Part shown: positions 8,744 to 63,513 of the stretch, in pieces
Layout of the letters: each line of letters opens with the position of its first letter
How positions within the stretch are numbered: position 1 is the first letter of the stretch
Assembly: GCA_016432625.1 (NCBI GenBank)
Contig: CP066697.1
Location: 279,363-343,362, forward strand
From: Candidatus Berkelbacteria bacterium
GTDB taxonomy: Bacteria > Patescibacteriota > UBA1384 > 2-12-FULL-50-11
DNA length: 64,000 nt
Direction of reading: 5' to 3'
Notes under the pieces: model-generated
The model's database searches: none
What the model was told of the DNA's origin: nothing
Seen by the model: the letters and a program-made list of their open reading frames with translations, nothing else
Translations under genes and position numbers: made by a program

Positions 8744-8749
8744 TCTTCG

Positions 8750-15571: not shown

Positions 15572-15584
15572 CTTGCACAACAAG

Positions 15585-18310: not shown

Positions 18311-18574
18311 ATGAAGCAAGTACTGTCTGCCGTATGGTCGTGGCTCCTAGCCTTGGGCGCTTGGTGCTTCGAAAACCCTCGCCGTGGTCTAATCACGATC
18401 GCTGCGATTCTGATCCTCGTCTACCCGCCGATTCTCGGTAAGGTAGTTGGTCGGATATTTGAGGCGCTCGCTCCGTTCATTGGCTTATTGCTGATGTTCG
18501 GGATGATCTACCTCATTATCAAGCCACTCCTGCCGAAGCGGCCCAAACCCCAGCAGCGGAGGTCGGACCGATGA
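18311..18574 (+). CDS. island small membrane protein (87 aa, 2 TM)
   Basis: GGAGGTGGG RBS directly upstream of the ATG at 18311. Confidence 0.5.
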   Translation: MKQVLSAVWSWLLALGAWCFENPRRGLITIAAILILVYPPILGKVVGRIFEALAPFIGLLLMFGMIYLIIKPLLPKRPKPQQRRSDR

Positions 18575-18690
18575 CCGCCTGCTGCGACTCTCGGGCGAAA
18601 CGGATCTCGTATCCGTCTTCGCCCTTCAATGAAGCTGCTGAACGCGTGACGTTCGACAGTTTCTAGAAATCTCACGGAGGAAACACACAC

Positions 18691-19044
18691 TTGGGACAAT
18701 CACCTACCATAGGACAGAGTCTGGAATTTCCGGACTTCTTCTACTTCTTGCGGTTCGGTCAAGAAAGCTCGCATTTTGCCGTCACGACCCACCTGGGCGA
18801 GTCGGCGATGTTGTGTTTTCGCTCGATCCGCGACATGGACGTTTACGCTAAGCCCTTCGAGGACACTCCGGGCATGTCGCGTTACGATTCCGACGCTCAG
18901 TCGATTGACTCGGCGCGGGATTTTCTTCGGGAACACTTCCCGAGCTTCCGTGCACTTGTCCTATTCGAGCCGGGCTATGTGCCCGGGCGAGATGAGGCGC
19001 GGCTGTCGGTGCATATCCCGCCGCCGCAACCCGTGATCGGGTGA
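18691..19044 (+). CDS. island hypothetical protein (117 aa, TTG start)
   Basis: GGAGGA lies 10 nt upstream of the TTG. Confidence 0.4.
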   Translation: MGQSPTIGQSLEFPDFFYFLRFGQESSHFAVTTHLGESAMLCFRSIRDMDVYAKPFEDTPGMSRYDSDAQSIDSARDFLREHFPSFRALVLFEPGYVPGRDEARLSVHIPPPQPVIG

Positions 19045-19132
19045 CCACTTACGCCTAACTTGGCGAGGTGGTCGCCCACCTTTCCGTCACCAGGAATTCG
19101 CTATGGCGATATTCGTGGTGGGGGATAAGCGT

Positions 19133-19285
19133 ATGAAACAGTATTCTTCTGAGTCCGATCAGCGCCGCCAGGAACGTTATGAGTTTTGGCGACTGCTTGG
19201 ACTTGGGGCTTTGTGCCTCGTCATCACTACCGCCGTTGTGGTTATCGCAACCCAATGGTGGAACAACCCGATCACCGTCAGGTGA
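19133..19285 (+). CDS. island small C-tail-anchored membrane protein (50 aa)
   Basis: GGGGGA RBS. Single C-terminal hydrophobic helix. Confidence 0.35.
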   Translation: MKQYSSESDQRRQERYEFWRLLGLGALCLVITTAVVVIATQWWNNPITVR

Positions 19286-19301
19286 AGGAGCGCAATGCGC
19301 A

Positions 19302-19610
19302 ATGGAAGAGCTTTTGGCTAGTTTTGACTTTCCGGAAGAGTTCTACATCGTCAGGCTTCTAGATTCCGAGGGCTACGGCCGTACCAATTACTGGGGACTA
19401 CCAGCCATTCTTTGTTTTCAGTTGAAAGATGATGCAGAGAACTTCGCCCGAAGGATGAACCGGGGCAACGAGATCTTGGTGGTCTCGCTCGATTTTGCCA
19501 GGGATCTGGCACTGTCAAGTCACGTGTACCGCTACCTCGTTCTCTACCAGCCTGAGACGCCGGAAGAAGAGTATCCGGCGATCTATGTTCCCGTTTCCAA
19601 AACAGGGTGA
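19302..19610 (+). CDS. island hypothetical protein (102 aa)
   Basis: GAAGGAG RBS upstream. Acidic, soluble. Confidence 0.45.
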   Translation: MEELLASFDFPEEFYIVRLLDSEGYGRTNYWGLPAILCFQLKDDAENFARRMNRGNEILVVSLDFARDLALSSHVYRYLVLYQPETPEEEYPAIYVPVSKTG

Positions 19611-19734
19611 CCAATGGCAAACCAGCCAAACGTCACCCACCTTTCCTCCAGCATGAAGCAATTCGTGCTTGGGGATGAGGGAAACCTCGAGACCTGTAAG
19701 TCCTGACCGCAAGGCAGGCTGGGTAAGGAAAGAA

Positions 19735-20151
19735 ATGGCAGACGAATGGGATGACATCCGCGGCGACATTCGCCAAGGACACGGTATCTTCTTTCGGTAC
19801 TTCTGGCTGTGGCTGATCATCTTGATCGGCTTGAGCTGGGGCGGGACCCTCGCCTACAAGGCTTGGATTCGTCCGACCGAAATCAACTTGGAGACGAAGG
19901 CGATTCGCCAGTCGATCCAGTATCAGGACACGGGCATCACCGCGATGCTCGAGAACGTCAAGGGTTACAAACGGCTCGAAACGGATATCCTGAAGTACGA
20001 AAGCGACCCGGCCAACGCCAAGCTCGTCGAGGGCATGCGCTCACAGCAGCGCTCGCTCTTGGACGACATCGAGACCACTGCCGATCGTATCGGCCGCGAC
20101 CGCGTGCCGGATTCGGTGCGCAGCTTCCTGGCAGCTCACGAGGGAGGGTAA
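19735..20151 (+). CDS. island N-terminally anchored membrane protein (138 aa)
   Basis: AAGGAAAG RBS. One TM helix, then a soluble domain. Confidence 0.5.
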   Translation: MADEWDDIRGDIRQGHGIFFRYFWLWLIILIGLSWGGTLAYKAWIRPTEINLETKAIRQSIQYQDTGITAMLENVKGYKRLETDILKYESDPANAKLVEGMRSQQRSLLDDIETTADRIGRDRVPDSVRSFLAAHEGG

Positions 20152-20158
20152 CGAGACA

Positions 20159-20746
20159 ATGAAAAACCTTTGCACGATCCTTTTGGTCACGGGCATTTTC
20201 TTCGTCTCGGGCTGTGGCTCGGATAACAAGGCAACCGCTGACACCCGTGAGCAGGTGGCTGTGAATAGGCAGCAGGAGATCTACGTGAAGAACCAGCCGA
20301 TCCCGGTCTTCGATTGGAGCCGGACGCGTGATCTTCTGATCCAATTCTACGTTGCCCAAAACGGGGCAGCGGCGACCTGGAGCTACATAACGCCCCAAAT
20401 GGGCGCGACTGTGCTGTTCGAAACACCGAGCCAGGGCTACCCGATCCCGATGGATACTCAGCTCACCAACCCGCTCCAAGCGGTTTGGGAAAGCAATAGC
20501 TATGGGTTGGGTGGACTTACACTCGCACAAGCGGAGCCTAACGGGGTCTTCACCTCGCCGAATACCGACGCGACAATCGTCATGGCGGTAAACGGCGACG
20601 GCACGCTCTCGCCGATCTACACCGAGCTCAAGGTGACCACGTTCCCATTCCCTGTCCGCTGGGATAAGGAGAAGGGGCAGTGGGTTCGGATCGAGGGCAA
20701 GGAGCCTTCTATCAAACTCATCCCCAAAGCGGGGAAGGGTGGATAG
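20159..20746 (+). CDS. island lipoprotein (195 aa)
   Basis: Signal peptide with lipobox (VSGC). GAGGGAGGG RBS. Confidence 0.55.
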   Translation: MKNLCTILLVTGIFFVSGCGSDNKATADTREQVAVNRQQEIYVKNQPIPVFDWSRTRDLLIQFYVAQNGAAATWSYITPQMGATVLFETPSQGYPIPMDTQLTNPLQAVWESNSYGLGGLTLAQAEPNGVFTSPNTDATIVMAVNGDGTLSPIYTELKVTTFPFPVRWDKEKGQWVRIEGKEPSIKLIPKAGKGG

Positions 20747-20846
20747 CGGTTCTTGCCTCTCACCCCTTCGGGTCAGTCCGGCGCAAGCCGGGTCTGGCCC
20801 ACCTTTCCCCGTTCACAATCAATTGTGGGCGGAGAGGAGGTTTGAT

Positions 20847-21122
20847 GTGTACTTCTTACTGTTCGCCGGGCTTTTCGTTGCCTTCTTCTCAGGCTTAGCA
20901 CTGCTGGTCACCCTTATCGTGTACAACTGGGGCATGTTTGGTGCGCGCAAGCGGTTTGGCCGGGAAGAGTTTTGGTCGACACTCGCCAGCGGAAACGATG
21001 ATTTCGACGATGTACGCGAAAATGCGATATGCATACCCGCAATCGCCGTTATCGCTGTCCTAGACCTCATACCCTGGCTCACGAGCAAGCTATTTCGCCG
21101 TCCCAACCAAAAGACGGCGTGA
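20847..21122 (+). CDS. island 2-TM small protein, paralog 1 (GTG start)
   Basis: GGAGG lies 6 nt upstream of the GTG. Two hydrophobic helices. Confidence 0.45.
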   Translation: MYFLLFAGLFVAFFSGLALLVTLIVYNWGMFGARKRFGREEFWSTLASGNDDFDDVRENAICIPAIAVIAVLDLIPWLTSKLFRRPNQKTA

Positions 21123-21228
21123 GCTTCTCATTCGGCTGAAGCGTGTGCATACGCAAACGTTTCAGCCCCCAACTGGATTCTTGACCAGCAGGTCGAGGGT
21201 TCTGAGGGAAACCTTAAGGAGAGAAGAA

Positions 21229-21525
21229 ATGGAAACCCTAAGCAACCTGCTAGGAGTTTTGTTGTTTTGGACTGTCATATCCTTCGGCTTTGCGTCCTTC
21301 GCCCGAGCATCCATGCCGGAGCGTGGGGACAACATGTTCGAGTGGTTTCGACGTATGTGCTTCGGACTTGAGCCAAATGACGGACCGATTTGGCTGGTAG
21401 TTGTCGCTCTGACGCTGCCAACCACTATACTGATCGGGATTTGGGAGTGGGTAGTTTATCCACCTGTTTCCCGAGCAAGTCGCAAGTTTCTTGAACGCAT
21501 CCAAGCCACAGGCAATGCGTCGTGA
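21229..21525 (+). CDS. island 2-TM small protein, paralog 2
   Basis: AAGGAGAG RBS. Preceded by a hairpin plus a conserved 37-bp ttgacc-containing motif. Confidence 0.5.
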   Translation: METLSNLLGVLLFWTVISFGFASFARASMPERGDNMFEWFRRMCFGLEPNDGPIWLVVVALTLPTTILIGIWEWVVYPPVSRASRKFLERIQATGNAS

Positions 21526-21598
21526 CCCGGCTGACGGTACTCGTACCGTCAGCCATCGCTCCTTGACCGTCAGGTAACTGATGATCGGGGATACGAAC

Positions 21599-21913
21599 AT
21601 GTATAACAACATCGACTCACTAACTTGGTGGTGGACTGTAATACTGCCTAGTTGGGTAGTGGCGAATCTGGTGGTGTGGTTCCTCTTCTGTTTGCTCCAC
21701 GCCACAGCTGGTGGACCGGCTGACGGACTCATCCTGTTCTTGAAAAAGCCCTTTGAGAGCCTAGACGAGAACACAGACCGACTTCCTGAACGACTACTCA
21801 TCGTAGGATTCGTTCTATTTTTCCTACCGCTCTTCGTTGCCGTTCAGCTTTGTGTTCTGATTGCACGGCTTGCACGCTTTCTTTGGATTGTCGCTACCAT
21901 AAAACGTGCATAA
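21599..21913 (+). CDS. island 2-TM small protein, paralog 3
   Basis: Same cassette layout as paralog 2. Preceded by a perfect 12-bp-stem hairpin and a ttgacc motif. Confidence 0.45.
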   Translation: MYNNIDSLTWWWTVILPSWVVANLVVWFLFCLLHATAGGPADGLILFLKKPFESLDENTDRLPERLLIVGFVLFFLPLFVAVQLCVLIARLARFLWIVATIKRA

Positions 21914-21999
21914 ACGCTCGCTTTGACTGACGGACACTCTCCGTCAGTCCCCGACTGAATTCTTGACCAGATGGTCGAGGGTTCTGAGGGAGGAACTAA

Positions 22000-22197
22000 T
22001 TGAAAGTGTTTGAATCGTTCATTTCTTGGCTTCTTCAAGCTTGGCTGACCGCCGCGTTTGAGCTCCACACCTTCAAGTGCGAGCAGTGTTTGAACGTTGA
22101 AATGGGGTTAACCGCTCCCGACAGCTTATGCCAGCGAGGCAAAGAGCTCAAAGCCGCGATCGGCGCGGAAGAAACCAACTGTGGGCAACCAAACTAG
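22000..22197 (+). CDS. island small Cys-rich protein (65 aa, CxxC...C...C; TTG start)
   Basis: GGGAGG upstream. Possible zinc-ribbon-like fold. Confidence 0.35.
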   Translation: MKVFESFISWLLQAWLTAAFELHTFKCEQCLNVEMGLTAPDSLCQRGKELKAAIGAEETNCGQPN

Positions 22198-22365
22198 GAT
22201 TGCCCACCCAACTGAGTTTTCAAATCTTTGAAGACTTTGAGGGTTTGTCTGGCCGGATCCGCTCCGGACGCAACGGTATCAGATGAAGTAATTCATTTTG
22301 AAATTTGCCGTTGCACTACCGCCGGAGCGGTTTTGGCTGGACAACGGTTCAGCAGGAGTGAACGT

Positions 22366-22662
22366 ATGTTACAAGTCTGGGTGAATGCTCAACTTGTCCG
22401 CCGAGGCGCTGTAGAAAGCGATTCGGAGGGCATCGCCTACTGCCGTTTCCGCTCTAAAGACGGAGACGTGGTGGCCACTTTCAACGAACGCAAGATTCAG
22501 GAAGAGGGCGGCAACGTCCTCATACCAGGAGCTTGCGACGACCTGATCGGCGAAAATGGCTTCATCGCCGTTAAGCCTGACTACGAGCCGTTTCTTTGGG
22601 GGGTTCACGGCCGCCCGAGAGAAACCGTATTGGTTCCGACAGCTGAGGTGATCTCAAGGTGA
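22366..22662 (+). CDS. island hypothetical protein (98 aa)
   Basis: AGGAGTG RBS 6 nt before the ATG at 22366. Confidence 0.45.
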   Translation: MLQVWVNAQLVRRGAVESDSEGIAYCRFRSKDGDVVATFNERKIQEEGGNVLIPGACDDLIGENGFIAVKPDYEPFLWGVHGRPRETVLVPTAEVISR

Positions 22663-23321
22663 AAAGCCTGACGATCGCCGTATCGCTTATCGTTGCTGCA
22701 ACGGGTTTGATCTTGGCGCTTATGCCGCTGATCTACCCAGGGCAACTTTACCTGATCGAAATCGGCGGCAGCATGGCCGTTGTCGCCGCAGCGTTGCTAA
22801 TTTGGGCAACACTTGTTCTGCGGGAGACTTGCTACTACGAGCTGAGGCTTGTTCGCGAGTCTGGCGGTGACATAGAGGGTTGCCTGGATGTCATGAGCCA
22901 CGACGGGCGAACATTCGTCAGTATCGGGGACATCTACCACCTGATCGATCAGTTCAACGACTCAGCGAACGGCAGCACTCACCTTAAGGTTGAGCGCCGG
23001 CAGATCTCAGCAGACAAGGCTAGTTCGCTTTGCGAACTGTCCTTTGAGGAAGTCTGGGGGATTGAGCCGCTCGAAGCCGAGCTGCTCCTCTTTGCCACGA
23101 CGCAAAGCCAAGGCGCTACGCTTCGTTACGAGGAGATGCCTGAGTTCAAGCTGGCTCTGGTTCACTACCGCTCGGAAATCCTGGCGATGGAAACCACGGA
23201 GTTCGACGGACTTCTGGCTGTCGTCAAGGGTTTGGCCGACAACCACAAGTTCATACGGCTACAAACTAGCCTGCGAACAACGGCGGCCAGTTATGAGGTG
23301 TTCGATGGAATACGCTCATAA
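22659..23321 (+). CDS. island membrane protein (220 aa, 2 N-terminal TM; GTG start)
   Basis: Overlaps the preceding stop (GTGA). Confidence 0.5.
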   Translation: MKSLTIAVSLIVAATGLILALMPLIYPGQLYLIEIGGSMAVVAAALLIWATLVLRETCYYELRLVRESGGDIEGCLDVMSHDGRTFVSIGDIYHLIDQFNDSANGSTHLKVERRQISADKASSLCELSFEEVWGIEPLEAELLLFATTQSQGATLRYEEMPEFKLALVHYRSEILAMETTEFDGLLAVVKGLADNHKFIRLQTSLRTTAASYEVFDGIRS

Positions 23322-23418
23322 TCACGACCACAACCTGGAGGCGCACGAATGAGAGTAATCTCACCCGTGCGCCCACCAACTGCCCGACAAGCTACCGCTT
23401 GAAAGGCTGAGGTTAAAC

Positions 23419-23874
23419 GTGAATAGACCCACATTAGTGCCACTCGTACTCGGGTTTATTTTCGGGTACCTACTTTTCAACACTGGTTTCTTCGGAGGTC
23501 CGTGTGTATTGCCACTGCTCTTGTTGATCGCACTCTACTCGCGAGGTATAGCCAGGATGCGTGAAGCTCATCGCTGGGCTGACATGCAGGCTATTCCCGC
23601 GGGCGACTGGTTGGTGCAGCTAAACATCTTCACCAACATTGGTTGCCAGAAGCATGAGCATCAAGTCCGTGGTGAGTTCAGGAGGCTCATACCCTTCATC
23701 GGCATTCGTTCGCCCGAAGAGGTAGAGCGGATTCGTCAGATGGTGGCGGATGCTTCGGAGGGTGGCTACGACTGGGTCACACTCTACAACCCTCCGGGAT
23801 TACCAAAACAGTTCGAACATCAGGCAACCTCGACGATTACTATCAGGTATTCGCCGTTGGAGGCCCCATCATAA
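23419..23874 (+). CDS. island membrane protein (151 aa)
   Basis: Two N-terminal hydrophobic helices. Confidence 0.45.
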   Translation: MNRPTLVPLVLGFIFGYLLFNTGFFGGPCVLPLLLLIALYSRGIARMREAHRWADMQAIPAGDWLVQLNIFTNIGCQKHEHQVRGEFRRLIPFIGIRSPEEVERIRQMVADASEGGYDWVTLYNPPGLPKQFEHQATSTITIRYSPLEAPS

Positions 23875-23946
23875 GGCGCACGGAACATCTTGTGCGCCCA
23901 CTTCCCCACCGCCTGCGTACAATGCGGACGGTGAGGAGAGTGAAGA

Positions 23947-24180
23947 ATGTATCGCAACATAAGGGGATCATCAGAATTCAAAGTTGGGTGCGTAGTACTG
24001 TTCGCCATGATCGTGCTCGCGATAATGATGATTCCCATAAAGAAACAACGTGACTGGCTAATGCTGTCCTGGATGGTAGCCGCTTGGGCGACCCTCTTTT
24101 TTATTCCCTGGCTCAGATATATTCGCCGGGAAAGAGAGCTTGAAGCACAGAAAAGGTTGAAAGAAAATCAAGCGCCTTGA
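23947..24180 (+). CDS. island small membrane protein (77 aa)
   Basis: GAGGAGAG RBS. Two hydrophobic helices. Confidence 0.45.
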   Translation: MYRNIRGSSEFKVGCVVLFAMIVLAIMMIPIKKQRDWLMLSWMVAAWATLFFIPWLRYIRRERELEAQKRLKENQAP

Positions 24181-24263
24181 CCTTTCGCAAAAGCGCCGAG
24201 TGAAACATCTCGGCGCACCCCCTCTCGTTTCGAACTTCGGTTCAAACGTGGAGGTAGGTGAAT

Positions 24264-24887
24264 ATGAACCGGCTCACAGTAATACTTCATGCCGGTTTAG
24301 TTCGGCTACTGAAGATCGTCGTTTGGCCAGTACTTCGGTACTTTGGCCCCGTCACGTGTGTTAAAGGGGCTACGCTTCCAAAAAAGGGAGGAGTCCTGAT
24401 TGTTGCCAACCACGAAAGCGTCGCCGATCCAGTCGTCGTGCAGTACACCTGCGCGCGACCGATCTGCTTCATGGCAAAAGCGGAGCTTTTCAAGCGCCCA
24501 GTGCTAAGTTTCGTGATTCGGCTGTTTCGCACGTTCATCGTCGAACCCAACACCTCAGATATCAGAGCAATTAGGCAAGCCATCGACTTACTGAAAGCTG
24601 GTGAGGTGGTGTTGGTCTTTCCGGAAGGTAAGATTAACGGCGAAAGTGGGGCTTTGCTTGGATTTCGCAAGGGCGTCGGGCTCATCGCCCGAAAGTCTGG
24701 GGCGACGGTGATTCCATGTGCCATTAGGCACTCCCGCCGCGTCTGGGCAAAGCCATCTTGGATACCAACTGGCCGTCACCAGATGACGGTCATCTGGGGC
24801 AAGGCGTATCGGTTCCGAGTCAGTGATGACAACGAAACAATTGCCACCGAACTTCGACAAGAAGTTTCTGCCCTCCTTGGGCGATAG
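24264..24887 (+). CDS. lysophospholipid acyltransferase (PlsC/LPLAT family)
   Basis: NHESVADP (HxxxxD acyltransferase motif) and FPEG motif. GGAGGTAGG RBS. Confidence 0.65.
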   Translation: MNRLTVILHAGLVRLLKIVVWPVLRYFGPVTCVKGATLPKKGGVLIVANHESVADPVVVQYTCARPICFMAKAELFKRPVLSFVIRLFRTFIVEPNTSDIRAIRQAIDLLKAGEVVLVFPEGKINGESGALLGFRKGVGLIARKSGATVIPCAIRHSRRVWAKPSWIPTGRHQMTVIWGKAYRFRVSDDNETIATELRQEVSALLGR

Positions 24888-24957
24888 GCCTCGAGCCTCT
24901 CGCCCCGCTTCCTCTCGTCTTTGCGACCACTACGGTCGTAGGCGGGGAGGAGAGTGA

Positions 24958-25203
24958 ATGTTTATCGGTGATCGAATCGACAAGATCTGCCAACTTGTCG
25001 CCCTTCTAGGGGTTCTTTTCTGCGTCGGCTCTATGTGGGTCTTCGCTCGTCTGGATAAACCGGTTACTTGGGCTTATTACTCAATGTTAGGCCTTGTTGT
25101 AACATTGGTTGCCCTCACGGTTATTCTCTTTCGGGGAAAACGCTATCAGAAGATGTGGCAGAAAGCCCGATGCATGTTCCTGAAGGAGTGGCCCGATGAC
25201 TAA
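24958..25203 (+). CDS. island small 2-TM membrane protein (81 aa)
   Basis: GGGGAGGAGAG RBS. Confidence 0.5.
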   Translation: MFIGDRIDKICQLVALLGVLFCVGSMWVFARLDKPVTWAYYSMLGLVVTLVALTVILFRGKRYQKMWQKARCMFLKEWPDD

Positions 25204-25292
25204 CATGTCCGTTATCCGGCGCAGCGACTTGCACCCGCTGCGCCCGCTTCCTGACCGCCCGTGAAGAACACGGACGGCGAGGTAGGTGATTA

Positions 25293-25454
25293 ATGTCGAC
25301 AAGTGGAAAATGCCTCATGCTGGGATCGATTGTCCTTGGTTCGATTGCCGGCACCCAGCTACACAGTTTCTGGGTAGGTTTGGGCGTCTGGTTCGGGCTG
25401 GCGATATACGGCTCGGCATTCTTGGTCGCTCAGAACAAAGGGGAAACAAGTTGA
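25293..25454 (+). CDS. island small hydrophobic protein (53 aa). Not in the ORF track; preferred over the listed 25286..25504 frame
   Basis: GAGGTAGGTGA lies 5 nt upstream of the ATG. Product MSTSGKCLMLGSIVLGSIAGTQLHSFWVGLGVWFGLAIYGSAFLVAQNKGETS is membrane-like, as are its neighbours. Confidence 0.35.
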   Translation: MSTSGKCLMLGSIVLGSIAGTQLHSFWVGLGVWFGLAIYGSAFLVAQNKGETS

Positions 25455-25548
25455 GAATCCGCGAAGCGCCGGGCTTAAAAACCCCGGCGCTTTTTGCGTT
25501 TTAAAAAGGTGTAAAATACTTTCATCTGAAACGAGCAGGAGGTGAAAG

Positions 25549-25833
25549 ATGAGCTCGGGCAGTGTTCCTCAAAGCGGCCAGTCCAAAAGTAACCGGCCGA
25601 ATGACTATCAAAGTCTTGGTGGGGCAGGGAACTTCTTCCTTGAGCCCGACGAGGTTTATGGAACTGCACCGGACTATGCCAGTTATCTCAAGGTCATTGG
25701 TCTGATCTTGGGCGAATCGGGCATCGTTTACGGTCTCTACCGGTTCGGCAGTCCGTTGGCGTTAGTGGTTCTCGTCGCCATAATCTTTTTGGCGATCTTA
25801 GCCTACGGCGTTAATAGGGTGCTGTTTGAATAG
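25549..25833 (+). CDS. island C-terminally anchored membrane protein (94 aa)
   Basis: GCAGGAGGTGA RBS. Confidence 0.5.
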   Translation: MSSGSVPQSGQSKSNRPNDYQSLGGAGNFFLEPDEVYGTAPDYASYLKVIGLILGESGIVYGLYRFGSPLALVVLVAIIFLAILAYGVNRVLFE

Positions 25834-25888
25834 CGGCTGGACGATTTCCAAAGATGTCGGGTCAAACTCGGCAAAGGAGGTGGGTCTA

Positions 25889-26140
25889 ATGGTGATCCAA
25901 GAGAAACCTCGAAACGACGAGTGGCGTGAGCGTTACGCTCACCCGCATCAGACGCGCTTGAGCCGTGTGGCTGAGGAAATACGGTTAATACCCGTGGTTC
26001 TCGGTCTGGCGATTGGTGGACTGGTGCTTGTTGGTCTGTCGGTTGGCTTCTCCGCGCCAATATATGCCGGAATTATTCTGTTCTCATTCGGAATACTGGC
26101 GGAATGGCTGCTGGGCAGACACTATGACTACACGTCTTGA
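25889..26140 (+). CDS. island membrane protein (83 aa)
   Basis: AAAGGAGGTGGG RBS before the ATG at 25889. Confidence 0.5.
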   Translation: MVIQEKPRNDEWRERYAHPHQTRLSRVAEEIRLIPVVLGLAIGGLVLVGLSVGFSAPIYAGIILFSFGILAEWLLGRHYDYTS

Positions 26141-26449
26141 AACTAGGACGTGGCTCGGGGCGGCTTCGGCCGCCCCAATTCTATATAAAAATGTTGCGCT
26201 GACTTGACGCATAGGCATACACTATTACTGAGTTGATCTCGGCAACCGTCGAGGTGGCTTGCATCGGAGGGAAAACATGAAGAAACTCTATCGTTTCCGG
26301 TCGCACGCGACGCACAAGCAGCACAGACGTCTACTGCATATGCTCGCCGCGAGCTTCATCGGCCGGGTGGCCTGGGGGTAGGCCGACGCAATCCTTCGAC
26401 ATCAAGTACGGCCCGGGTTTCTAACCCGGGCCGCTTGCTTAATATAAAT

Positions 26450-26503
26450 ATCGAAAATGGTGCGAATCTAACCCAAAGCAGGTTATTCGCCCATTTTCAT
26501 CCG
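26450..26503 (+). repeat. S stem-loop copy B (direct repeat of 15332-15385 with compensatory stem)
   Basis: atcgaaaa-tggtgcg-aatctaacccaaagcaggttatt-cgcccat-tttcatcc. Confidence 0.6.
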
Positions 26504-26581
26504 TAACCCCGTAGGGAGCGTGTCGGGGATGGGGTTGTAGGGGTAAGGGGGTGACTTCGCAATGAACCCCTTTACCCCTAC
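26504..26581 (-). repeat. R repeat copy B (inverted copy of 15187-15267), abutting the uvrA stop codon
   Basis: Its reverse complement reads gtaggggtaaaggggttcattgcgaagtcaccccccttacccctacaaccccatccccgacacgctccctacgggg. Confidence 0.8.
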
Positions 26582-29484
26582 TCACTTTTTTCTACAGACG
26601 GAGAATGTTTTGCTTTCTTGCCAAAAATAACGGGCTCTAAAACTTTCCCGGTTAACGAGGCTTTGGTTAACGCCACCTCTTCTGGCGTTCCTTTGGCAAC
26701 AATCGTGCCGCCTGCTTCGCCACCTCCGGGTCCTAAATCAATCAGCCAGTCAGCACTTTTGATAACGTCTAGGTTGTGTTCGATAACAACGATTGTGTTA
26801 CCACGGTCAACCAGCTTCTGAAGAACGAGCAGTAGGCGTTCGACGTCGGAAAAATGAAGGCCGGTCGTCGGTTCATCTAAAACATAGAGAGTTTTGCCGG
26901 TATCGCGCCGTGAGAGCTCGGAAGCGAGCTTGATTCGTTGCGCTTCACCGCCGGACAACGTTGTTGCCGGTTGTCCGAGGCGAATATAGCCCAAGCCAAC
27001 TTGCTGCAAAGTGCGCAGTTTGTCAGCGAGAACGCCGATATTTTCAAAAAATTCCAACGCTTCATCGACGGTCATATTGAGAACCTGGGAGATATTCTTC
27101 CCTTTCCAGGTAACTTCAAGCGTCTCGCGGCTATAGCGTGTGCCCTTACAAACGTCGCAGGTGATATAAACATCGGGCAGGAAGTTCATTTCGATCTTAA
27201 TTACCCCGTCGCCCTGACAGTTTTCGCAACGTCCACCGACAACGTTAAAAGAAAACCGACCTGGTTTATAACCGCGACTTCGGGCGGAAGGCGTAGCGGC
27301 GAAAAGCTGGCGAATCGGGTCAAAAGCCTTGGTGTAGGTGGCCGGGTTGCTGCGCGGAGTACGGCCGATAGGGGACTGATCGATTTCGATTATCTTGTCG
27401 ATATGTTCGGTCCCGGTGATCGACTCGTGACTGCCCGGCACGTCGCTTTTTAAGCCGAGTTTCATACTAATTCCTTTACTAAGAATCTCAGTGACTAGGG
27501 TTGATTTACCCGATCCAGAAACTCCCGTCACGGCGACAAAACGCTTTAGCGGAATGTTGGCGGTGATGTTCTTGAGATTATTCTCTTTAGCTCCGTGAAT
27601 GGTGATGTTTGTGTGCCCTTTCTCGATCGTGCGTCGTTCTGGCAGGGCAATTTTCTTATCGCCGCTTAGGTACGGCGCGGTGATTGATTTGGGGTTCTTT
27701 AAGACTTCGTCTAAAGTTCCGGCGGCAACGATTGTCCCGCCGTGTTCACCAGCTCCCGGGCCGATATCGACGACGTAGTCCGCTTCGCGAATAGTTGCCT
27801 CGTCGTGCTCAACAACAATTACCGAGTTGCCTAAATCTCGCAGACGTTTCAGGGTTTCAATGAGTCGGTCGTTGTCGGTTGGGTGAAGGCCGATTGTCGG
27901 CTCGTCCAAAACATACAGGATACCGACAAGCGCCGAACCAATCTGTGAGGCAAGGCGGATGCGTTGGCTTTCACCGCCGGCCAGAGTTGTAGCGGTGCGA
28001 TCAAGCGTCAAATAGTTGAGCCCGACTTTTCCCAGGAATTCGAGTCGGCTAGCAATTTCGAGCAATACCTTGCCGGCGATATTGGCTTCGCGGGCGTTTA
28101 ATTTTAATTCATCAAAGAATGCTCGTGCCTTGTCGATTGTGAGTTGCGACACTTCAGCGATATTTTTGCCGCCAACTTTTACGATTAGTGCGTCTTCCTT
28201 CAGACGAGCGCCTTTGCAGGTTTTGCACTCGCTGGAGAGCATATAGCGCTCGATTTGCTCGCGCACCATGTCTGACTCGGTTTCATGGTAGCGAGATTCA
28301 AGGTGCGGAATGAGTCCACGAAAACCAACCATAAAATGATGGGCAACACCGGCGGAGTAGTACTTTAGTTTTAGCTTTAACGGCGCTCCGACGCCGTAAA
28401 GAAGCTTATTTAAGTCTTGTTTCTCAAGTTTTTTGATCGGCACGTCAACGCTCATCCCAAAATGCTCGGCAGCGTTTTTAAGCAAAATTCCGTAATAGTT
28501 TGTTGGCGAGTACGTCCAGGGCATAATACCGCCCTCGGCAATTGATTTATTGTCGTCGGGAATGATTAAAACCTCGGAAACCTCTTTTTTGAAGCCTAAG
28601 CCGTGACAGTCTTCGCAAGCGCCATAAGGGCTATTGAATGAAAACGACCGGGGCGAAATTTCACCCAAAGAAAAACCGTCGTATGGGCAGGCTAAATCCT
28701 CGCTCAGCATCAATTCGTCGTCTTTGCCTTCCTGAGCAATAATAACCAAGCCTTTAGAAAGCTTAATTGCTGTTTCCATCGCTTCGTTCAAGCGGGTGCG
28801 ACTTGATTGGCCCATAATTAGTCGGTCAACTACCACTTCAATGTTGTGGGCTTTATAGCGGTCCAGCTGGATTGAATCAGTCAGGGCGTACATCTCGTCG
28901 TTGACTCGAACGCGGGCAAAACCACCCTTATATAGGTCGTAGAGTAATTGGTGATATTCGCCTTTGCGGCCACGGACGACCGGCGCAAGGACGATTACGC
29001 GGGTGTCTTGCGGCAACGACTCGACCAGGTCAACCATCTGGTCGGTCGTTTGGCGCGAGATTGGCCGGCCGCATTTAGGACAAAACGGGGTCCCAACCCT
29101 GGCAAAAAGTAGTCTCAGGTAGTCGTAAATTTCTGTCACCGTGCCAACCGTCGAGCGTGGATTATGGGAGACGGTTTTTTGGTCGATTGAAATCGCTGGC
29201 GAGAGCCCTTCGATATAATCTACGTCGGGTTTCTCCATTTGACCCAAAAATTGCCGGGCGTAGCTTGAGAGCGATTCCATGTAACGGCGCTGTCCTTCGG
29301 CGTAAATCGTGTCGAAGGCCAGGCTGGACTTGCCAGAACCTGACAGGCCAGTGAAAACAATTAGTTTTTCGCGCGGCAACTCAAGGTCAATGTTTTTGAG
29401 ATTATGTTCGCGGGCGCCTTTAATAACTATAGTTCCTGCGGAACTTTCGAGGGCTTTGCTTGAGATCTTTTCTTCCGTTGCCAT
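26578..29484 (-). CDS. uvrA: excinuclease ABC subunit A
   Basis: 968 aa. Duplicated ABC ATPase ([20 protein letters not shown]), zinc-finger Cys clusters and LSGGE signature motifs. Confidence 0.95.
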
Positions 29485-34354: not shown

Positions 34355-34558
34355 ATGGCATTTAGTACACAGTCCAAGAAGTCAGGTAAGACTTACTACT
34401 TGCACTCGAAGTCGGTTACGCTACGCGGCGGCCGCCAGCAGACCATCTACTACTTCGCGCAAGATGTTCGTGACGGCGCAATGGATTCCGTCCCTTCTGG
34501 TTACATGGTGATGGAGAACCCACGCACGGGTCTACCGATGTTAAAGAAGAGTATGTAA
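34355..34558 (+). CDS. small hypothetical protein (67 aa)
   Basis: GGAAGGAGGTGA RBS. Upstream TTGACA promoter-like box and a ttaaccag/ctggttaa palindrome. Confidence 0.5.
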   Translation: MAFSTQSKKSGKTYYLHSKSVTLRGGRQQTIYYFAQDVRDGAMDSVPSGYMVMENPRTGLPMLKKSM

Positions 34559-57203: not shown

Positions 57204-59291
57204 ATGGCACGTGAATATCCGTTAGAGAGTGTCCGTAACTTTGGCATAATTGCTCACATCGACGCTGGTAAAACCACCGTTTCGGAACGCATCCTGTTCT
57301 TCACCGGTAAAACTTACAAGATTGGTGAAGTACACGAGGGTGCGGCCGTCATGGACTGGATGGAGCAGGAACAAGAGCGTGGTATTACTATCACCGCCGC
57401 CGCTACCACCACTTTTTGGAAAGATCACACGTTCAACATCATCGACACCCCGGGACACATCGACTTTACCGTTGAAGTTCAGCGCTCTCTGCGCGTGCTT
57501 GACGGGGCGGTGACCGTTTTTGATGGTGTGGCCGGTGTTGAGGCGCAAAGTGAAACTGTTTGGCGACAAGCCGACAAGTATAAAGTACCGCGAATCTGTT
57601 TCGTCAATAAACTCGATCGTATCGGGGCGGATTTCAAGCACGTTATTAAAACCATTCACGATCGTCTCGGCGCCAAGACAGCGATTCTCCAACTGCCAAT
57701 CGGCACCGAGGATCAGTTAAAGGGTGTTGTCGATTTACTCGAGAACAAAGCCCTGGTTTGGCCAAAAGAAGAAGCCACCGAACCCACGATCGAAGACGTT
57801 CCGGCCGATATGAAAGCCGAAGTCGAAGAGTATCGCAGTAAACTAATCGAACAAATCGCCGAAACTGACGAAGCCCTGCTGGAAAAGTTTTTTGCCGGTG
57901 AAGAGCTCGCTATTGATGAGTTGAAAAAAGCGCTTCGTAAAGCGGTCATCAATGTCGAACTCTTTCCCGTCATGGCTGGTTCTGCCCTCAAAAACAAAGG
58001 CGTTCAGCCGTTGCTAGACGCAGTTGTTGATTATCTTCCGTCGCCGCTTGATGTTCCGCCGGTTGAGGGAATTAACCCGAAAAACGAAGAAGAAAAAATT
58101 GTCCGCGAAACTTCTGACGACGTACCATTTACAGCCCTTGCCTTTAAAGTCGCAACCGATCCTTTTGTTGGCTCGTTAACGTTCTTCCGCGTCTACGCCG
58201 GAAAACTTGCTGCTGGCTCGTATGTTTTAAACCCTGGAAAAGGCGAGAAAGAACGTATCGGTCGCATCGTCCGCTTGCACGCCAATAGCCGCGAGGACGT
58301 CAAAGAAGTCTACGCTGGTGAAATTGCCGCTGCTGTGGGATTAAAAGCCACTACTACTGGCGACACTCTCTGCGCCGAAAATGCGCCGATCGTGCTGGAA
58401 CAGATCAGTTTCCCAGAGCCGGTCATCAAAATGTCAATCGAGCCGAAAACCAAAGCCGACCAAGAAAAAATGGGCGCTGCCCTGCAACGTCTCGCCGCCG
58501 AAGACCCAACTCTACGTTTATCTAAAGACGAAACTGGCTCACAAACGCTGATCGAAGGCATGGGCGAGCTTCACCTCGACATTATCGTCGACCGCATGAA
58601 GCGCGAGTTCAACGTTGAAGCCATTAAAGGCGCGCCGCAGGTTGCTTACAAAGAAACGATCAAAAGCACCGTCAAACAAGAAGGCAAATACATCAAACAA
58701 ACCGGTGGCCGCGGCCAGTACGGTCACGTTTGGCTGCAAATCGAGCCGCAAGAATCAGGAACCGGCTTTGAATTCGTCAACAAGATTGTCGGCGGCACCA
58801 TTCCTCGCGAATTCATTCCTTCAGTTGAAAAGGGTATCAAAGACGCCCTGACCAAGGGTGTAGTTGCCGGCTATCCAATGGTTGATATTAAAGCCACGCT
58901 TTACGATGGTTCGTACCACGACGTCGACTCTAGTGACGTTGCCTTCCAGATTGCCGGCGCCATGGCCTTCAAAGATGGTTGTAAAAAAGCTAACCCGATT
59001 CTCCTTGAACCGATAATGAAGGTTGAAGTCGTCACGCCGGAAGAGTTCTTCGGTAACGCGATGGGCGACTTAAACAGTCGTCGTGGCCGAGTAATGGGTA
59101 CCGAAGATCGCGGCAACTCCAAAGTTATCGACTCGCACGTCCCGCTTGCTGAAATGTTTGGCTACATCACTGATCTTCGCGGTATGAGCCAAGGACGAGC
59201 TTCGTTCACCATGGAATTTGACCATTACGAAGAGGCGCCGAGCAATATCACCGCTGGCATCGTTGGGAAAAGTGCCAAGGCAGAGGCGTAA
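57204..59291 (+). CDS. fusA: elongation factor G
   Basis: [17 protein letters not shown] and NKLD motifs. ATG at 57204. Confidence 0.95.
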
Positions 59292-59312
59292 AATATTTTG
59301 AATCAAAAGCAG

Positions 59313-59337
59313 AGAAGCGCCGATGCGGTGCTTTTTT
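59313..59337 (+). terminator. intrinsic terminator after fusA
   Basis: gcgccgatgcggtgc hairpin followed by tttttt. Confidence 0.6.
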
Positions 59338-59342
59338 GTTTC

Positions 59343-59412
59343 GCAGGAGGTAGGGGAATTCATTGCGACGTCATCCCCCTACCTCCTGCACCTCCACCCC
59401 CGACACGCTCGC
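59343..59412 (+). repeat. R repeat copy C (hairpin 59343-59389 plus ccccgacacgctcgct box)
   Basis: Loop attcattgcgacgtca and box are shared with copies A and B. Confidence 0.75.
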
Positions 59413-59424
59413 TCATGGCTGAAG

Positions 59425-59475
59425 GCAAAAAGCGACTTCATAACCTGCCTAGGGGTTAGATTCAGCCGCTTTTTA
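59425..59475 (-). repeat. S stem-loop copy C (reverse orientation)
   Basis: Its reverse complement reads aaaaagcggctg-aatctaacccctaggcaggttat-gaagtcgcttttt. Confidence 0.5.
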
Positions 59476-59515
59476 ACTATTTAATAAAATACATACAAAA
59501 TACGGGGCGAAGGCG

Positions 59516-59544
59516 TTGACTTTGAGGTGGGTTTAGGGTATTAT
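59516..59544 (+). promoter_or_regulatory. strong sigma70-like promoter (TTGACT, 17-nt spacer, TATTAT) with no ORF downstream
   Basis: The consensus-like boxes are followed about 110 nt later by a hairpin/T-run terminator (59656-59690). Confidence 0.5.
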
Positions 59545-59551
59545 TCGCCAG

Positions 59552-59690
59552 CGTTCGACGGCTTCCTTTGGAAGCAAACTTCCGGCTGTGGCCAGGTTGT
59601 GCAAACAACCGACCTAAACCACGTAAGCCCCAATTCAAGAATCGTCGAACGAAACCGGCTCCCGCCACCATACGGGAGCCGTTTCATATT
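59552..59690 (+). ncRNA. candidate small RNA (promoter-to-terminator unit of about 130 nt) convergent with the 67-aa hydrophobic-protein gene
   Basis: Defined only by the promoter at 59516-59544 and the terminator cggctcccgccaccatacgggagccg + tttcatatt. No credible ORF. Confidence 0.3.
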
Positions 59691-59734
59691 ATGTATGAGT
59701 TGGGCCCGGGAAGTTCATCCCGGGCCCTTTCTGG

Positions 59735-59938
59735 CTACCGCTGTGGAGGCAAAGGGCCTCCGCCGAGTGTCTCGCCCATGCCTAACGCAAAGGCGATAAA
59801 CATGGGAGAAAGTGCGATGCCGATGCCGGCATACATCACCTGTTCCTGGTGAAACAAGGCAGCGATGCCGGTAATGATCAGTCCGAAGACTGTTCCAGAT
59901 GCGTATGGGTGCCTTCGCACAAAAGAAACGAACCTCAT
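59735..59938 (-). CDS. small hydrophobic protein (67 aa, 2 TM), candidate type I toxin-like
   Basis: GGAGGT RBS 6 nt from the ATG. Extended -10 (TGgTATACT) upstream. Two tandem hairpins downstream on the minus strand. Confidence 0.5.
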   Translation of the reverse strand: MRFVSFVRRHPYASGTVFGLIITGIAALFHQEQVMYAGIGIALSPMFIAFALGMGETLGGGPLPPQR

Positions 59939-60069
59939 CCGGTTACCTCCTACCGATGTTTCGCAGAGTATACCAGTTAACCCCCACCTAATCCATATAA
60001 AACCCGTCGAAAAGTAAATCGAAAATTACCAAGCCATGGAACAGCGCGGTAATTTTCTCCTCAACCGCG

Positions 60070-60220
60070 TAGCGAGCGTGTCGGGGTGAGACCGCCAGTG
60101 AGAAGCCAACTGCTTGGCTTTGAACCGGTCGAACGGGTTGAGGCCTATTCGTAGAATGCCGAAACCCCGCTTCATTTGTTGGTAGGGGCTGACTTCGCAA
60201 TGAATTCCTCTACCTCCTGC
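60070..60220 (-). repeat. R repeat copy D (box tagcgagcgtgtcgggg, about 95-nt spacer, hairpin with loop ttcgcaatgaatt)
   Basis: Reverse-complement orientation relative to copy C. Forms the right inverted repeat of the insertion. Confidence 0.7.
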
Positions 60221-60371
60221 AAAACAAAAAGCGGCCTTTGGCCGCTCGCTGCTTTTGATTCAAAATGTTTTAAGCTCCGGCTAGCGAGGGCGAATTGCTC
60301 ACGCTAGTCTGGATTTTTTAACAAAAGATATATATAATTCCGACTAATCTTCGGATTACAGGAGGAACCCC

Positions 60372-60851
60372 TTGGAAGAGAACGTTAAAGATGATCGGAG
60401 AATCTGGGCGCTGATTCGAGAAATCGATGAGGTTAAGAAGCGCTCCTTGCTTCCACCCGGACAGCAGGAAATGAGTAAGGCCAGACGATGCAAATTAGCT
60501 CGTCGGCTTATGTACCTTCTTGATGATGCGAAAGGCGTGATGACGGAAAGCGAATTATTCAGCCACCTAGGCACTACGGCTGAAGAGTATCACACGCAGT
60601 GTTCGCCAAAGTACGGTGATGCGACGATCGTCGAATTCGTCAGGTCTCGAGACGCCAAACTCGATAACCTACGCGAAAGGTGTTTAGACACACTTGATCC
60701 GAACAGGGTCAAGATCGGCACATCAAGGTCGAGTGGACGAGCGATTAGTTTCCTGAGCAATGCCGAGCAGGGCGCAGGAGCTGAACTCTCAATTGACAGG
60801 TGCATCTCGCTTCTCGAGGAGTTACGCAAAATCCAAGACGAGGCGAAATGA
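60372..60851 (+). CDS. hypothetical protein (159 aa, TTG start)
   Basis: CAGGAGGA RBS 5 nt before the TTG. GC-rich. No domain recognised. Confidence 0.45.
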   Translation: MEENVKDDRRIWALIREIDEVKKRSLLPPGQQEMSKARRCKLARRLMYLLDDAKGVMTESELFSHLGTTAEEYHTQCSPKYGDATIVEFVRSRDAKLDNLRERCLDTLDPNRVKIGTSRSSGRAISFLSNAEQGAGAELSIDRCISLLEELRKIQDEAK

Positions 60852-60994
60852 AGACGATACGAAGGCCGAGGCGCGCAAGCGCTGAGGCCTTTTTCTTTAC
60901 TTATCACCCAAAAACCACGAGCCATGCTCCGTGAAACAGGATCAGCGAGCGGTTTTCACCTCGCCCCTGCGGGTGGCGTGCTTGGGTGGGGAGT

Positions 60995-61042
60995 GCAGAG
61001 GGGTAGGGCAGCGCTTCGCAAGTAGCACCCCTACCCCTCTGC
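60995..61042. repeat. R-like hairpin copy E (diverged), followed by a T-run
   Basis: gcagaggggtaggg / loop cagcgcttcgcaagtagca / cccctacccctctgc. The loop shares cttcgcaa with other R loops. An upstream agcgagcg box lies at about 60953. Confidence 0.55.
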
Positions 61043-61102
61043 TTGAGTTTTCGCTGCTACAATTAGGAAAGACGTCAGCACCCTGTCTTAACGAAAGGAG
61101 CC

Positions 61103-61132
61103 TTGACGCTCCTTCTGATAACCAGGTACAAT
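61103..61132 (+). promoter_or_regulatory. sigma70-like promoter for tuf
   Basis: TTGACG, an 18-nt spacer, then TACAAT, about 65 nt before the tuf ATG. Confidence 0.5.
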
Positions 61133-62402: not shown

Positions 62403-62747
62403 ATGAGTGAATCAAAACACAAAAACGAAAAGCGCACACAAGCTAAGTCCTCGATCCGCATTAAGCTCAAAGCTTACGATTACCGGGTCATCGACCGTAG
62501 CGCTAAGAAGATAATTGAAACTGCTGAACGGACCGGGGCGGTGGTTGCTGGACCTATCCCGCTGCCAACGGAAAAGAACCTCGTCACGGTCAACCGTTCA
62601 ACGTTCGTCCACAAAGACGCGCGTGAGCAGTTCGAGATCCGCACCCACAAACGCATCATCGACGTCTTGGACCCAAATCCAAAGACTTTAGATGCCTTGA
62701 TGAATCTGGACTTGCCAGCGGGTGTAGACATAGAGATTAAGACTTAA
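62403..62747 (+). CDS. rpsJ: 30S ribosomal protein S10 (with short basic N-terminal extension)
   Basis: IRIKLKAYD...LPTEK...THKRIIDV S10 signature. Confidence 0.9.
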
Positions 62748-62773
62748 GTTGAACTAAAAAACCTAAGCGCAGA

Positions 62774-62804
62774 AAGCCCCAGGTGAAAGCCTGGGCTTTT
62801 TGTG
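62774..62804 (+). terminator. intrinsic terminator after rpsJ
   Basis: gccccagg-tgaa-agcctggggc followed by tttttgtg. Confidence 0.7.
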
Positions 62805-62817
62805 CTAAGTAAACAAC

Positions 62818-63513
62818 ATGGATCCCAATAGTGATGAGTATAAGAATTTTCTAGCCTTCAAGGAAGATAGGCTCGGGACAGCAAAACTGCGAGATGAGGT
62901 TGTTGATAAGTTTGTTGGACATATCACAGATAATCTTAAGCAGCGACGTGAGCTACTGAAGCATATAACAATTATCTCCGCAGGTATTGTTGCGGTTTTG
63001 CCTGTGATACAAAACGGAAGCGATAATAGTAACTTGTTTTTCTGGGGAATATTCTTACTGCTAGTCACGGTGGTGCTAACGGTTAGTTATTTGCGAGAGA
63101 AGATGGACCTTGAAGGACAATCTCTGCAAGACAATTCGGAGAAGTATCTGACTATACTCAAGACAAAGCTTGCCCTACTTGATCGGTACATCGGTGAGCG
63201 GAAATTCTCTAATAACAATGTTTCTGAGTATCTGGATGAGTTGGAGAATGAGCCAACTATTAGAGAGCTTGGACGAGAGGTAGGTAAACCCGCAGAAAAA
63301 GAACGTTTAGAATATTTCTCTGAGTTCGTTGTCTTTTTATTCGTAAGCGCACTTTTCCTTTTAGCTTCAGCACTTGTTCCGTTGTCCCTAAATCCCTACG
63401 AGTTTTTTTCAACAATTGTCGTGATATTCATCGTTTCCTTCACTGGGTTTGCTTCATTACTCTCTCGAGTAATCACCGACATCATCGACTACTTTTTGCA
63501 TAGGATCAGGTAA
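62818..63513 (+). CDS. hypothetical membrane protein (231 aa)
   Basis: Several hydrophobic helices. Lower GC than the backbone average. Confidence 0.5.
   Translation: MDPNSDEYKNFLAFKEDRLGTAKLRDEVVDKFVGHITDNLKQRRELLKHITIISAGIVAVLPVIQNGSDNSNLFFWGIFLLLVTVVLTVSYLREKMDLEGQSLQDNSEKYLTILKTKLALLDRYIGERKFSNNNVSEYLDELENEPTIRELGREVGKPAEKERLEYFSEFVVFLFVSALFLLASALVPLSLNPYEFFSTIVVIFIVSFTGFASLLSRVITDIIDYFLHRIR

Follow-up and report, generated by a model that had tools for sequence, protein, structure and literature searches.

In the fusA-tuf spacer of a metagenome-assembled genome (MAG) of Candidatus Berkelbacteria, a lineage of the Candidate Phyla Radiation (CPR), we describe a candidate pair of convergent transcription units: a minus-strand open reading frame (ORF) of 67 amino acids (aa), here termed ORF67, predicted to code for a small membrane peptide, and a plus-strand promoter followed by a putative structured non-coding RNA. 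The analysis was performed on a 64-kb stretch of contig CP066697.1 (hereafter, the window), in which the locus lies between fusA (end 59291) and tuf (start 61199), and it follows up an earlier note that had proposed a type I toxin-antitoxin-like module at this site. The reading we tentatively favour, at a little below even chances, is that of a convergent sense/antisense pair with a type I toxin-antitoxin-like layout, carried by a repeat-bounded lineage-specific insertion, in which the RNA would probably lower the ORF67 mRNA. Taken by itself, the statement that the pair is real and that its two transcripts overlap stands at or just below even chances.

In the proposed explanation, an extended -10 promoter would drive a gene, led by a ribosome-binding site, for an orphan helical membrane peptide of 67 aa, and a near-consensus promoter would drive the structured non-coding RNA of ~140 nucleotides (nt), or ~180 nt with read-through. 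Both units would end at the same hairpin(s), with the RNA perfectly complementary to ~40–85 nt of the 3′ untranslated region (UTR) of the peptide mRNA, and it would pair neither with the peptide coding region nor with its ribosome-binding site. The duplex of the 3′ ends would be cleaved by a double-strand RNase and the peptide mRNA would be lowered. Such a cis-antisense control is the most likely working relation of the two units. The analysis shows the sequence signals, the insertion, its bracketing repeats and the lack of homologues of ORF67; we infer that both RNAs are made, that they end at the positions given below, that they pair and that the pairing has this effect. No RNase III signature was found in the window, a result that is uninformative as the rest of the genome lay outside its scope.

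ORF67 and its expression signals

The minus-strand ORF announced by the earlier note was recovered with the same translation, together with its ribosome-binding site, 6 nt from the ATG, and its extended -10 box (TGGTATACT, the reverse complement of 59967–59975). This putative promoter is not listed by a two-hexamer scan because it has no good -35. Among the 215 mechanical ORFs of 50–90 aa in the window, a 6-mer Shine-Dalgarno sequence at the right distance was found for only two, one of which is ORF67, and two hydrophobic segments are present in ten, ORF67 being among them. The peptide has a GRAVY (grand average of hydropathy) of 0.64, and AlphaFold models a helix over residues 11–58 (predicted local distance difference test, pLDDT, 78). 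The codon score of +0.11 per codon is the sole positive one among the frames of the core (real genes average 0.30, with the 5th percentile at 0.06).

No significant match to Pfam, NCBIfam, PHROG or PADLOC was obtained, and ORF67 shows no homology to the known toxin families (Hok, Ldr, Ibs, TisB, ShoB, Fst, TxpA/BsrG/YonT and others). The ORF is left uncalled in the NCBI annotation of the MAG, Logan being the sole source of the protein. Two independent samples contain the identical sequence, on metagenome contigs that match the window at 100% and are therefore silent on selection acting on ORF67; this Berkelbacteria population assembles from SRR12113407 and SRR12113397. Altogether, we consider it quite probable that ORF67 is a real, translated gene.

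The second ORF with a 6-mer Shine-Dalgarno sequence (34355–34558, plus strand) probably represents a small gene missed by annotation; its product, also of 67 aa (MAFSTQSKKSGKTYYLH...), is basic and looks soluble. Shine-Dalgarno use is patchy across this genome. At several genes (26578–29484 on the minus strand, 34659 and 37719) a TACAAT/TATAAT box lies ~8–10 nt 5′ of the ATG, which suggests leaderless or very-short-leader mRNAs.

The predicted plus-strand RNA and its promoter

The near-consensus promoter on the plus strand is present as claimed, with 10 of the 12 consensus positions. It is a single match in 2.5 kb, which does not exceed the 1.8 expected from local shuffles; in the whole window, only 11 sites reach at least 10/12. 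The other well-placed intergenic plus-strand sites (15543, 34618, 48932 for rpoB and 61103 for tuf) are located upstream of genes or of a conserved leader, and the plus promoter is credible because comparable intergenic sites have this position. A promoter of this type is also kept ahead of tuf in four genomes.

The predicted transcript (142 nt) folds with a 10-bp closing helix pairing 59552–59561 with 59642–59651 (minimum free energy, MFE, -57.5 kcal/mol; z -5.9), and its body without the terminator still gives z values of about -3.8 to -4.0. The absence of an ORF in this region, as stated in the earlier note, needs to be reworded: two mechanical ORFs, 59527–59799 and 59568–59852, do cross it, though a ribosome-binding site is lacking in both and their codon scores are negative. 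At the level of sequence signals, the region thus looks like an antisense or adjacent small RNA (sRNA) gene: it has a promoter, its plus-strand hairpins carry U-tails and none of its frames is credible as coding. The plus-strand product is probably a discrete RNA.

An attempt to assign the strand of the RNA by folding was dropped, given that both strands fold alike; the structure is no more than moderately unusual. A known RNA family was also sought: Rfam returned none at gathering score for the window and none at permissive thresholds for the region, and the weak matches of the plus RNA (at most 18.5 bits) were driven by the terminator. No tRNA or tmRNA genes were found.

Shared hairpins and predicted 3′ overlap

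Two GC-rich hairpins, T1 and T2 (Table 1), separate the stop codon of ORF67 from the body of the RNA. The earlier note had taken them as two tandem terminators of ORF67; both hairpins exist, but a minus-strand U-tail (GUUUCGUUCG) is found at T2 only. On this strand T1 (59727–59702) is followed by AACUCAUACA and is not a classical terminator for ORF67. On the plus strand, U-rich tails follow both hairpins (UUUCAUAUUAU and UUUCU), so that the tandem terminators suit the plus RNA better than ORF67.

If the ORF67 mRNA (ending at ~59650) and the RNA (ending at ~59690) both pass T2, on which the complementarity depends, the predicted overlap would be ~40 nt (59650–59690), and up to ~85 nt if the plus RNA reads on to T1 (~59732). 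Since the stop codon is at 59735–59737, the overlap would lie wholly in the ORF67 3′ UTR. We also considered whether the RNA body could pair in trans with the start of ORF67 translation or with its coding sequence; this was rejected, as the pairing was no better than in shuffled controls.

Table 1. Coordinates of the locus, its flanks and the dispersed repeat (positions in the window unless a relative's contig is named).
Feature	Position	Strand	Remarks
fusA (elongation factor G, EF-G), left boundary gene	57204..59291	+	translation, relatives
fusA stop codon, terminator-like hairpin (59316–59332) and T-run	59286..59342	+	outer part of left inverted-repeat arm
Repeat copy A	59343–59470	+	14-bp hairpin 59343–59389, loop TTCATTGCGACGTCA; CCCCGACACGCTCGCT at 59398–59413
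Sigma-70-type promoter TTGACT-17-TATTAT	59516..59544	+	10/12 consensus positions
Predicted non-coding RNA, ~140 nt	59551..59692	+	fold; closing helix, two inner hairpins, terminator hairpin T2
Hairpin T2, bidirectional terminator, core of predicted RNA-RNA overlap	59656..59681	.	U-rich tails on both strands
Hairpin T1 (GGGCCCGGG...CCCGGGCCC)	59702..59727	.	U-tail on plus strand only; in ORF67 3′ UTR
ORF67, 67 aa, ATG start	59735..59938	-	orphan; two hydrophobic segments, about residues 13–31 and 34–55
Shine-Dalgarno AGGAGGT	59945..59951	-	6 nt 5′ of ORF67 ATG
Extended -10 TGgTATACT, putative ORF67 promoter	59967..59975	-	read from sequence
Repeat copy D	60052–60235	-	inverted with respect to A; hairpin broken by ~80 extra nt (60103–60183)
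Intrinsic terminator (60247–60229) and outer end of right arm	60229..60275	-	reverse complement aligns 60275–60229 with 59286..59342
ORF159, second orphan gene of the insertion	60372..60851	+	AGGAGG ribosome-binding site, TTG start
Repeat copy E	60940–61045	-	diverged; hairpin 60995–61042
tuf promoter TTGACG-18-TACAAT	61103..61132	+	kept in relatives; right end of insertion
Repeat copy B	15184–15273	+	
Repeat copy C	26445–26584	-	
Repeat copies in relatives (at least two)	L084 2036–2170; L088 2778–2868		

An insertion in the fusA-tuf spacer

Relatives were found through EF-G protein matches, and the fusA-tuf spacers were then read on their contigs. For fusA in the window, the ATG at 57204 is the probable start, which yields an EF-G of 695 aa, as in the relatives. 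The spacer measures 1907 bp in the window versus 156 and 103 bp in the two closest relatives (L085 and L086, both with 93% EF-G identity), the range of 103–156 bp also including those of the P0012 contig (113 bp; 83%) and of L089 (115 bp; 82%). Two others are longer, 438 bp in the P0010 contig (88%) and 951 bp in L087 (86%), the latter holding an unrelated 149-aa minus-strand orphan. By this comparison 59292–61100 (~1.8 kb) is a lineage-specific insertion, in agreement with the earlier note, which had placed the module inside an insertion, and it matched nothing in the loci of the relatives except the dispersed repeat described below.

The tuf promoter (TTGACG/C, 17–18 nt, TACAAT) is conserved in every readable spacer (four genomes). 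With fusA ending at its own terminator and tuf starting from this conserved promoter, the spacer can take extra DNA and neither gene is broken. It is a variable hotspot, whose content differs by lineage. In L087, a promoter of its own, TTGACT-17-TAAAGT, lies in it ahead of two hairpin/terminator structures (8720–8878; z -3.6); this piece adjoins the 149-aa orphan, encoded on the other strand, and its sequence is not similar to that of the plus RNA of the window.

The insertion holds a second orphan gene, ORF159, annotated by NCBI as hypothetical protein HZB70_01015. Its assignment as a transposase or regulator was rejected, as no Pfam, NCBIfam or PDB match was obtained; its AlphaFold model (pLDDT 56) was too poor for a fold search, and it is unrelated to the 149-aa orphan of L087. 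Profile searches of the insertion detected neither a transposase nor a recombinase. A phage or plasmid origin was likewise rejected: there was no DNA match and no PHROG or PADLOC match, and the repeat is absent from IMG/VR.

A second variable hotspot adjoining a ribosomal gene is the region 3′ of rpsJ. In the window (62403–63513) the place of rplC after rpsJ is taken by a 231-aa membrane protein, for which a SLATT domain was matched weakly (E 1e-3). The same site is occupied by a type I restriction-modification system in L085 (4825–8922) and by a PIF1-like helicase in L087 (10682–13570).

A dispersed hairpin repeat brackets the locus

The ORF67/RNA core (about 59414–60070) is bracketed by inverted repeats, which the earlier note had overlooked. 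The arms, 59286–59430 and 60050–60275 (about 145 and 225 nt, with ~80 extra nt in the right arm), are ~85–90% identical. In each arm the outer part is an intrinsic terminator and the inner part is a copy of a dispersed repeat. The left-arm terminator is that of fusA itself, and the right-arm one (60247–60229) faces the opposite direction, its stem being paired as well despite a different sequence.

The repeat (~95–130 nt) consists of a 13–17-bp hairpin with a conserved loop, TTCATTGCGAAGTCA, followed by CCCCGACACGCTCSCT...GGTGAAAA; its motif was counted four times against 0.05–0.2 expected. Six of the seven hairpins, that of copy D being broken, are intact with differing but complementary stems, the stem changes thus being compensatory. 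In L088 a copy follows fusA in opposite orientation. The repeat has no Rfam model. Neither the insertion nor the surroundings of copies B and C yielded a recognisable RAYT or transposase, and no target-site duplications at the copy ends were seen by eye.

Two further relations involving the repeat were tried and rejected. The ribosome-binding site and N-terminus of ORF67, read as a degenerate sixth copy (common AGGAGGTA, TGCGAAG.CA.CCC), did not reach significance (z at most 2), nor did the local alignment of the two inward promoters as homologous parts of both arms.

A second pair of inverted copies, B and C, also facing inward, encloses the block at 15.2–26.6 kb. The ~11 kb between uvrC (13411–15042, minus strand) and uvrA (26578–29484, minus strand) contain ~20 ORFs, 18 of the 19 tested being without a Pfam match; an acyltransferase at 24258–24887 is the clear exception. 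The block 15184–26584 may be a genomic island. Within it, 15543–15830 is conserved with L084 2187–2480 and comprises a strong promoter, TTGACA-17-TATCAT, and a ~270-nt leader with a boxA-like CTCTTTAACAA; the genes 3′ of it have no detectable similarity between the window and L084 (tblastx). This is a conserved leader before hypervariable cargo. Beside copy C (26196–26440), a promoter-like site, a 34-aa basic ORF with a strongly negative codon score and a GGCCCGGG hairpin (26410–26434) were found; this promoter, short transcript and hairpin are loosely like the ORF67/RNA locus.

Weighing of the alternative explanations

The favoured reading draws on the gene-like features of ORF67, the credible plus promoter, the fold of the RNA, the bidirectional hairpin T2, a layout and predicted overlap like those of yonT/SR6, and the insertion. 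Several results weigh against a working sense/antisense pair. As to the peptide, a word-indexed search of 5.8 billion protein clusters returned ORF67 alone, and an exhaustive HMMER search of 1.84 billion representatives returned itself plus matches judged spurious because they are long repetitive proteins with many short stretches. A tblastn search of phages and IMG/VR found nothing, the plasmid collections likewise gave no homologue, no paralogue was present in the window or in the fetched loci of the relatives, and ORF67 is absent from the fusA-tuf spacers of relatives with 82–93% EF-G identity. ORF67 is therefore unconserved, which is one half of a condition (an ORF both non-toxic and unconserved) that the earlier note had named as refuting its proposal. 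Its codon score falls in the low tail of real genes and is marginal. In the centroid fold of the ORF67 mRNA the AGGAGG is unpaired, the ribosome-binding site not being occluded, and the MFE fold pairs it solely through a low-probability long-range helix. As to the RNA, a z of -4 or lower is reached by ~2% of random 101-nt windows of this genome, and the reverse complement of the RNA body folds equally well (z -4.2 vs. -4.0). No complementarity between the two transcripts was found beyond the shared terminator region, and convergent units often share a terminator in general. Moreover, the plus promoter may have come as part of a repeat-plus-promoter unit, rather than having evolved as an antitoxin promoter: 11 of the 17 positions of its spacer (counted by eye on the alignment) match those of the promoter at 15543–15571, and in L084 a repeat copy is directly followed by a promoter, TTGACT-17-TATAGT.

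Among the other explanations, a genuine type I toxin-antitoxin (addiction) module is the functional, stronger subset of the sense/antisense pair. In this case ORF67 would act as a toxin that damages membranes, with the plus RNA as antitoxin, and the inserted DNA would be stabilised by the pair. All the layout evidence applies to it equally, and the anatomy agrees with that of the 3′-overlapping class, as the earlier note had it. Of the two promoters, that on the toxin side has an extended -10 only and looks weaker than the antitoxin-side one (10/12, with a -35), in line with an excess of antitoxin; the site is strain-specific, repeat-bounded DNA, and a candidate toxin with two transmembrane (TM) segments has a precedent in MsoT1 (PMC12390103). 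However, ORF67 is a single-copy orphan, whereas chromosomal type I families usually occur in several relatives or copies; a length of 67 aa with two hydrophobic segments is atypical (PMC12390103); the mRNA fold sequesters no ribosome-binding site, the complementarity is at the terminator only, and the insertion has no phage or plasmid genes needing to be stabilised. We therefore regard an addiction module as fairly unlikely: the resemblance of the ORF67/RNA locus to a type I layout is real, short of establishing membership of the class. Its most far-reaching form is very unlikely, namely a working type I pair with a two-helix toxin in a CPR bacterium, as the cargo of a repeat-bounded cassette, in a genome where inverted repeat pairs would bound Berkelbacteria hypervariable DNA (the 1-kb pair A/D and the 11-kb pair B/C between uvrC and uvrA).

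Two functionally unrelated units with a common bidirectional terminator, that is, an ordinary orphan small membrane protein next to an independent sRNA or to the by-product of a repeat-borne promoter, would account for an overlap confined to the terminator region, for the 11/17 spacer match and for the repeat copy adjoining a TTGACT promoter in L084. The L087 spacer, with its different promoter-plus-hairpin piece and no hydrophobic ORF, points in the same direction. Against this, perfectly complementary 3′ ends of at least 40 nt would be substrates of double-strand RNases whenever both RNAs are present, and the RNA body is more structured than ~96–98% of genomic windows. On balance, unrelated units are a doubtful explanation.

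The core may instead be non-functional debris left by repeat-mediated rearrangement or by inverted duplication of the fusA 3′ flank, with ORF67 untranslated. The complete lack of homologues, the marginal codon score, flanks that are an inverted duplication including the fusA terminator, the variable content of the spacer between lineages and the missing NCBI call, Logan being the only source, are all consistent with this. Nevertheless, chance is unlikely to have brought together a 6-mer ribosome-binding site at ideal spacing, an ATG, an extended -10 on one side, hairpins on the other and a pair of hydrophobic segments, the individual frequencies among comparable ORFs being ~1% for the ribosome-binding site and ~5% for the hydrophobic segments, and the sequence is identical in two independent samples. 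Debris is thus an unlikely origin of the locus.

Least probable, although compatible with the other readings, is a mobile or invertible foldback element spanning 59286–60275 with the inverted repeat copies as arms and ORF67/RNA as cargo: the size and identity of the arms, the second inward-facing pair B/C around a block of unknown ORFs and the opposite orientation of the L088 copy fit it, but the insertion revealed neither a transposase nor a recombinase and no target-site duplication was seen, the arms are 10–15% diverged and occur in one orientation only in two assemblies, and their homology takes in the terminator of the host gene fusA, a sign of duplication more than of transposition.

Implications

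According to a recent paper, Proteobacteria, Firmicutes and Tenericutes are the only phyla in which type I toxin-antitoxin systems are known, in part because of a detection bias (PMC12390103), and our literature search found no report linking them to Patescibacteria/CPR. If true, a type I system in an ultra-small CPR bacterium would widen the known range and add a new toxin type. If the locus is functional, the principle would be familiar and the novelty would lie in the phylum, in the setting between repeats and in the peptide with its likeness to a toxin; at this stage it is an in silico candidate without conservation behind it. The toxin-antitoxin idea may merit no more attention than the variable "safe-harbour" spacers and the family of repeats. 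The flanking repeats may mark where Berkelbacteria genomes acquire or shuffle lineage-specific DNA, and ribosomal-gene spacers flanked by their own terminator and promoter (fusA-tuf and 3′ of rpsJ) seem to be tolerated insertion sites.

Comparison with known systems

As in REP/BIME, ERIC-type and MITE-like repeats, the arms flanking the locus are copies of a multi-copy intergenic hairpin repeat, often found directly after gene 3′ ends. Unlike REP or MITE-like elements, the repeat is accompanied in the window by no RAYT or transposase; it lacks clear terminal inverted repeats and target duplications and falls in no Rfam family. To our knowledge, inward-facing inverted pairs around lineage-specific DNA have not been described as a property of REP or ERIC.

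With regard to the toxins, classical type I members are shorter than 60 aa and have one TM helix, MsoT1 being the reported two-helix exception (PMC12390103). The msoT1/msoA1 candidate of Microcystis aeruginosa shares with ORF67 the two predicted TM helices, a host outside the three classical phyla and similar in silico criteria (PMC12390103). The two have no sequence similarity, and toxicity was shown experimentally for MsoT1, whereas ORF67 is a prediction.

The txpA/RatA pair of the Bacillus subtilis skin element has the same convergent layout with overlapping 3′ ends, these being predicted in our case, and its antitoxin promotes mRNA decay with no block of the ribosome-binding site (PMC3834814). 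In contrast with ORF67, for which no such helix is predicted, the txpA ribosome-binding site lies in a 5-bp helix, and the TxpA family was unmatched in our Pfam/NCBIfam searches.

The closest likeness in anatomy is with yonT/SR6, bsrE/SR5 and bsrG/SR4 of B. subtilis, in which a small hydrophobic ORF faces a convergent sRNA (100–180 nt), both with their own promoters, and complementarity is confined to the 3′ ends (PMC5848175, PMC3834814). In bsrG/SR4 the toxin has 38 aa and the terminator loop of SR4 makes the first contact (PMC3834814). In yonT/SR6, from the SPbeta prophage, a 58-aa toxin and a 100-nt RNA overlap by ~65 nt in the 3′ UTR, decay is RNase III-dependent and the promoters are of the extended -10 type (PMC5848175); the ~40–85 nt predicted for the ORF67 locus are of comparable extent. 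Location in non-core DNA is common to these pairs and to our locus, and the extended -10 boxes of yonT and sr6 have a counterpart at ORF67. The differences are the lack of sequence homology, the 67 aa and two segments of ORF67 versus 38–58 aa and one segment, a predicted overlap of perhaps only ~40 nt, the absence of a prophage context, a description from sequence alone, and the host phylum, Patescibacteria (CPR). The duplex-dependent lowering of mRNA proposed here for ORF67 would follow the control of yonT by SR6 and of bsrE by SR5 in B. subtilis.

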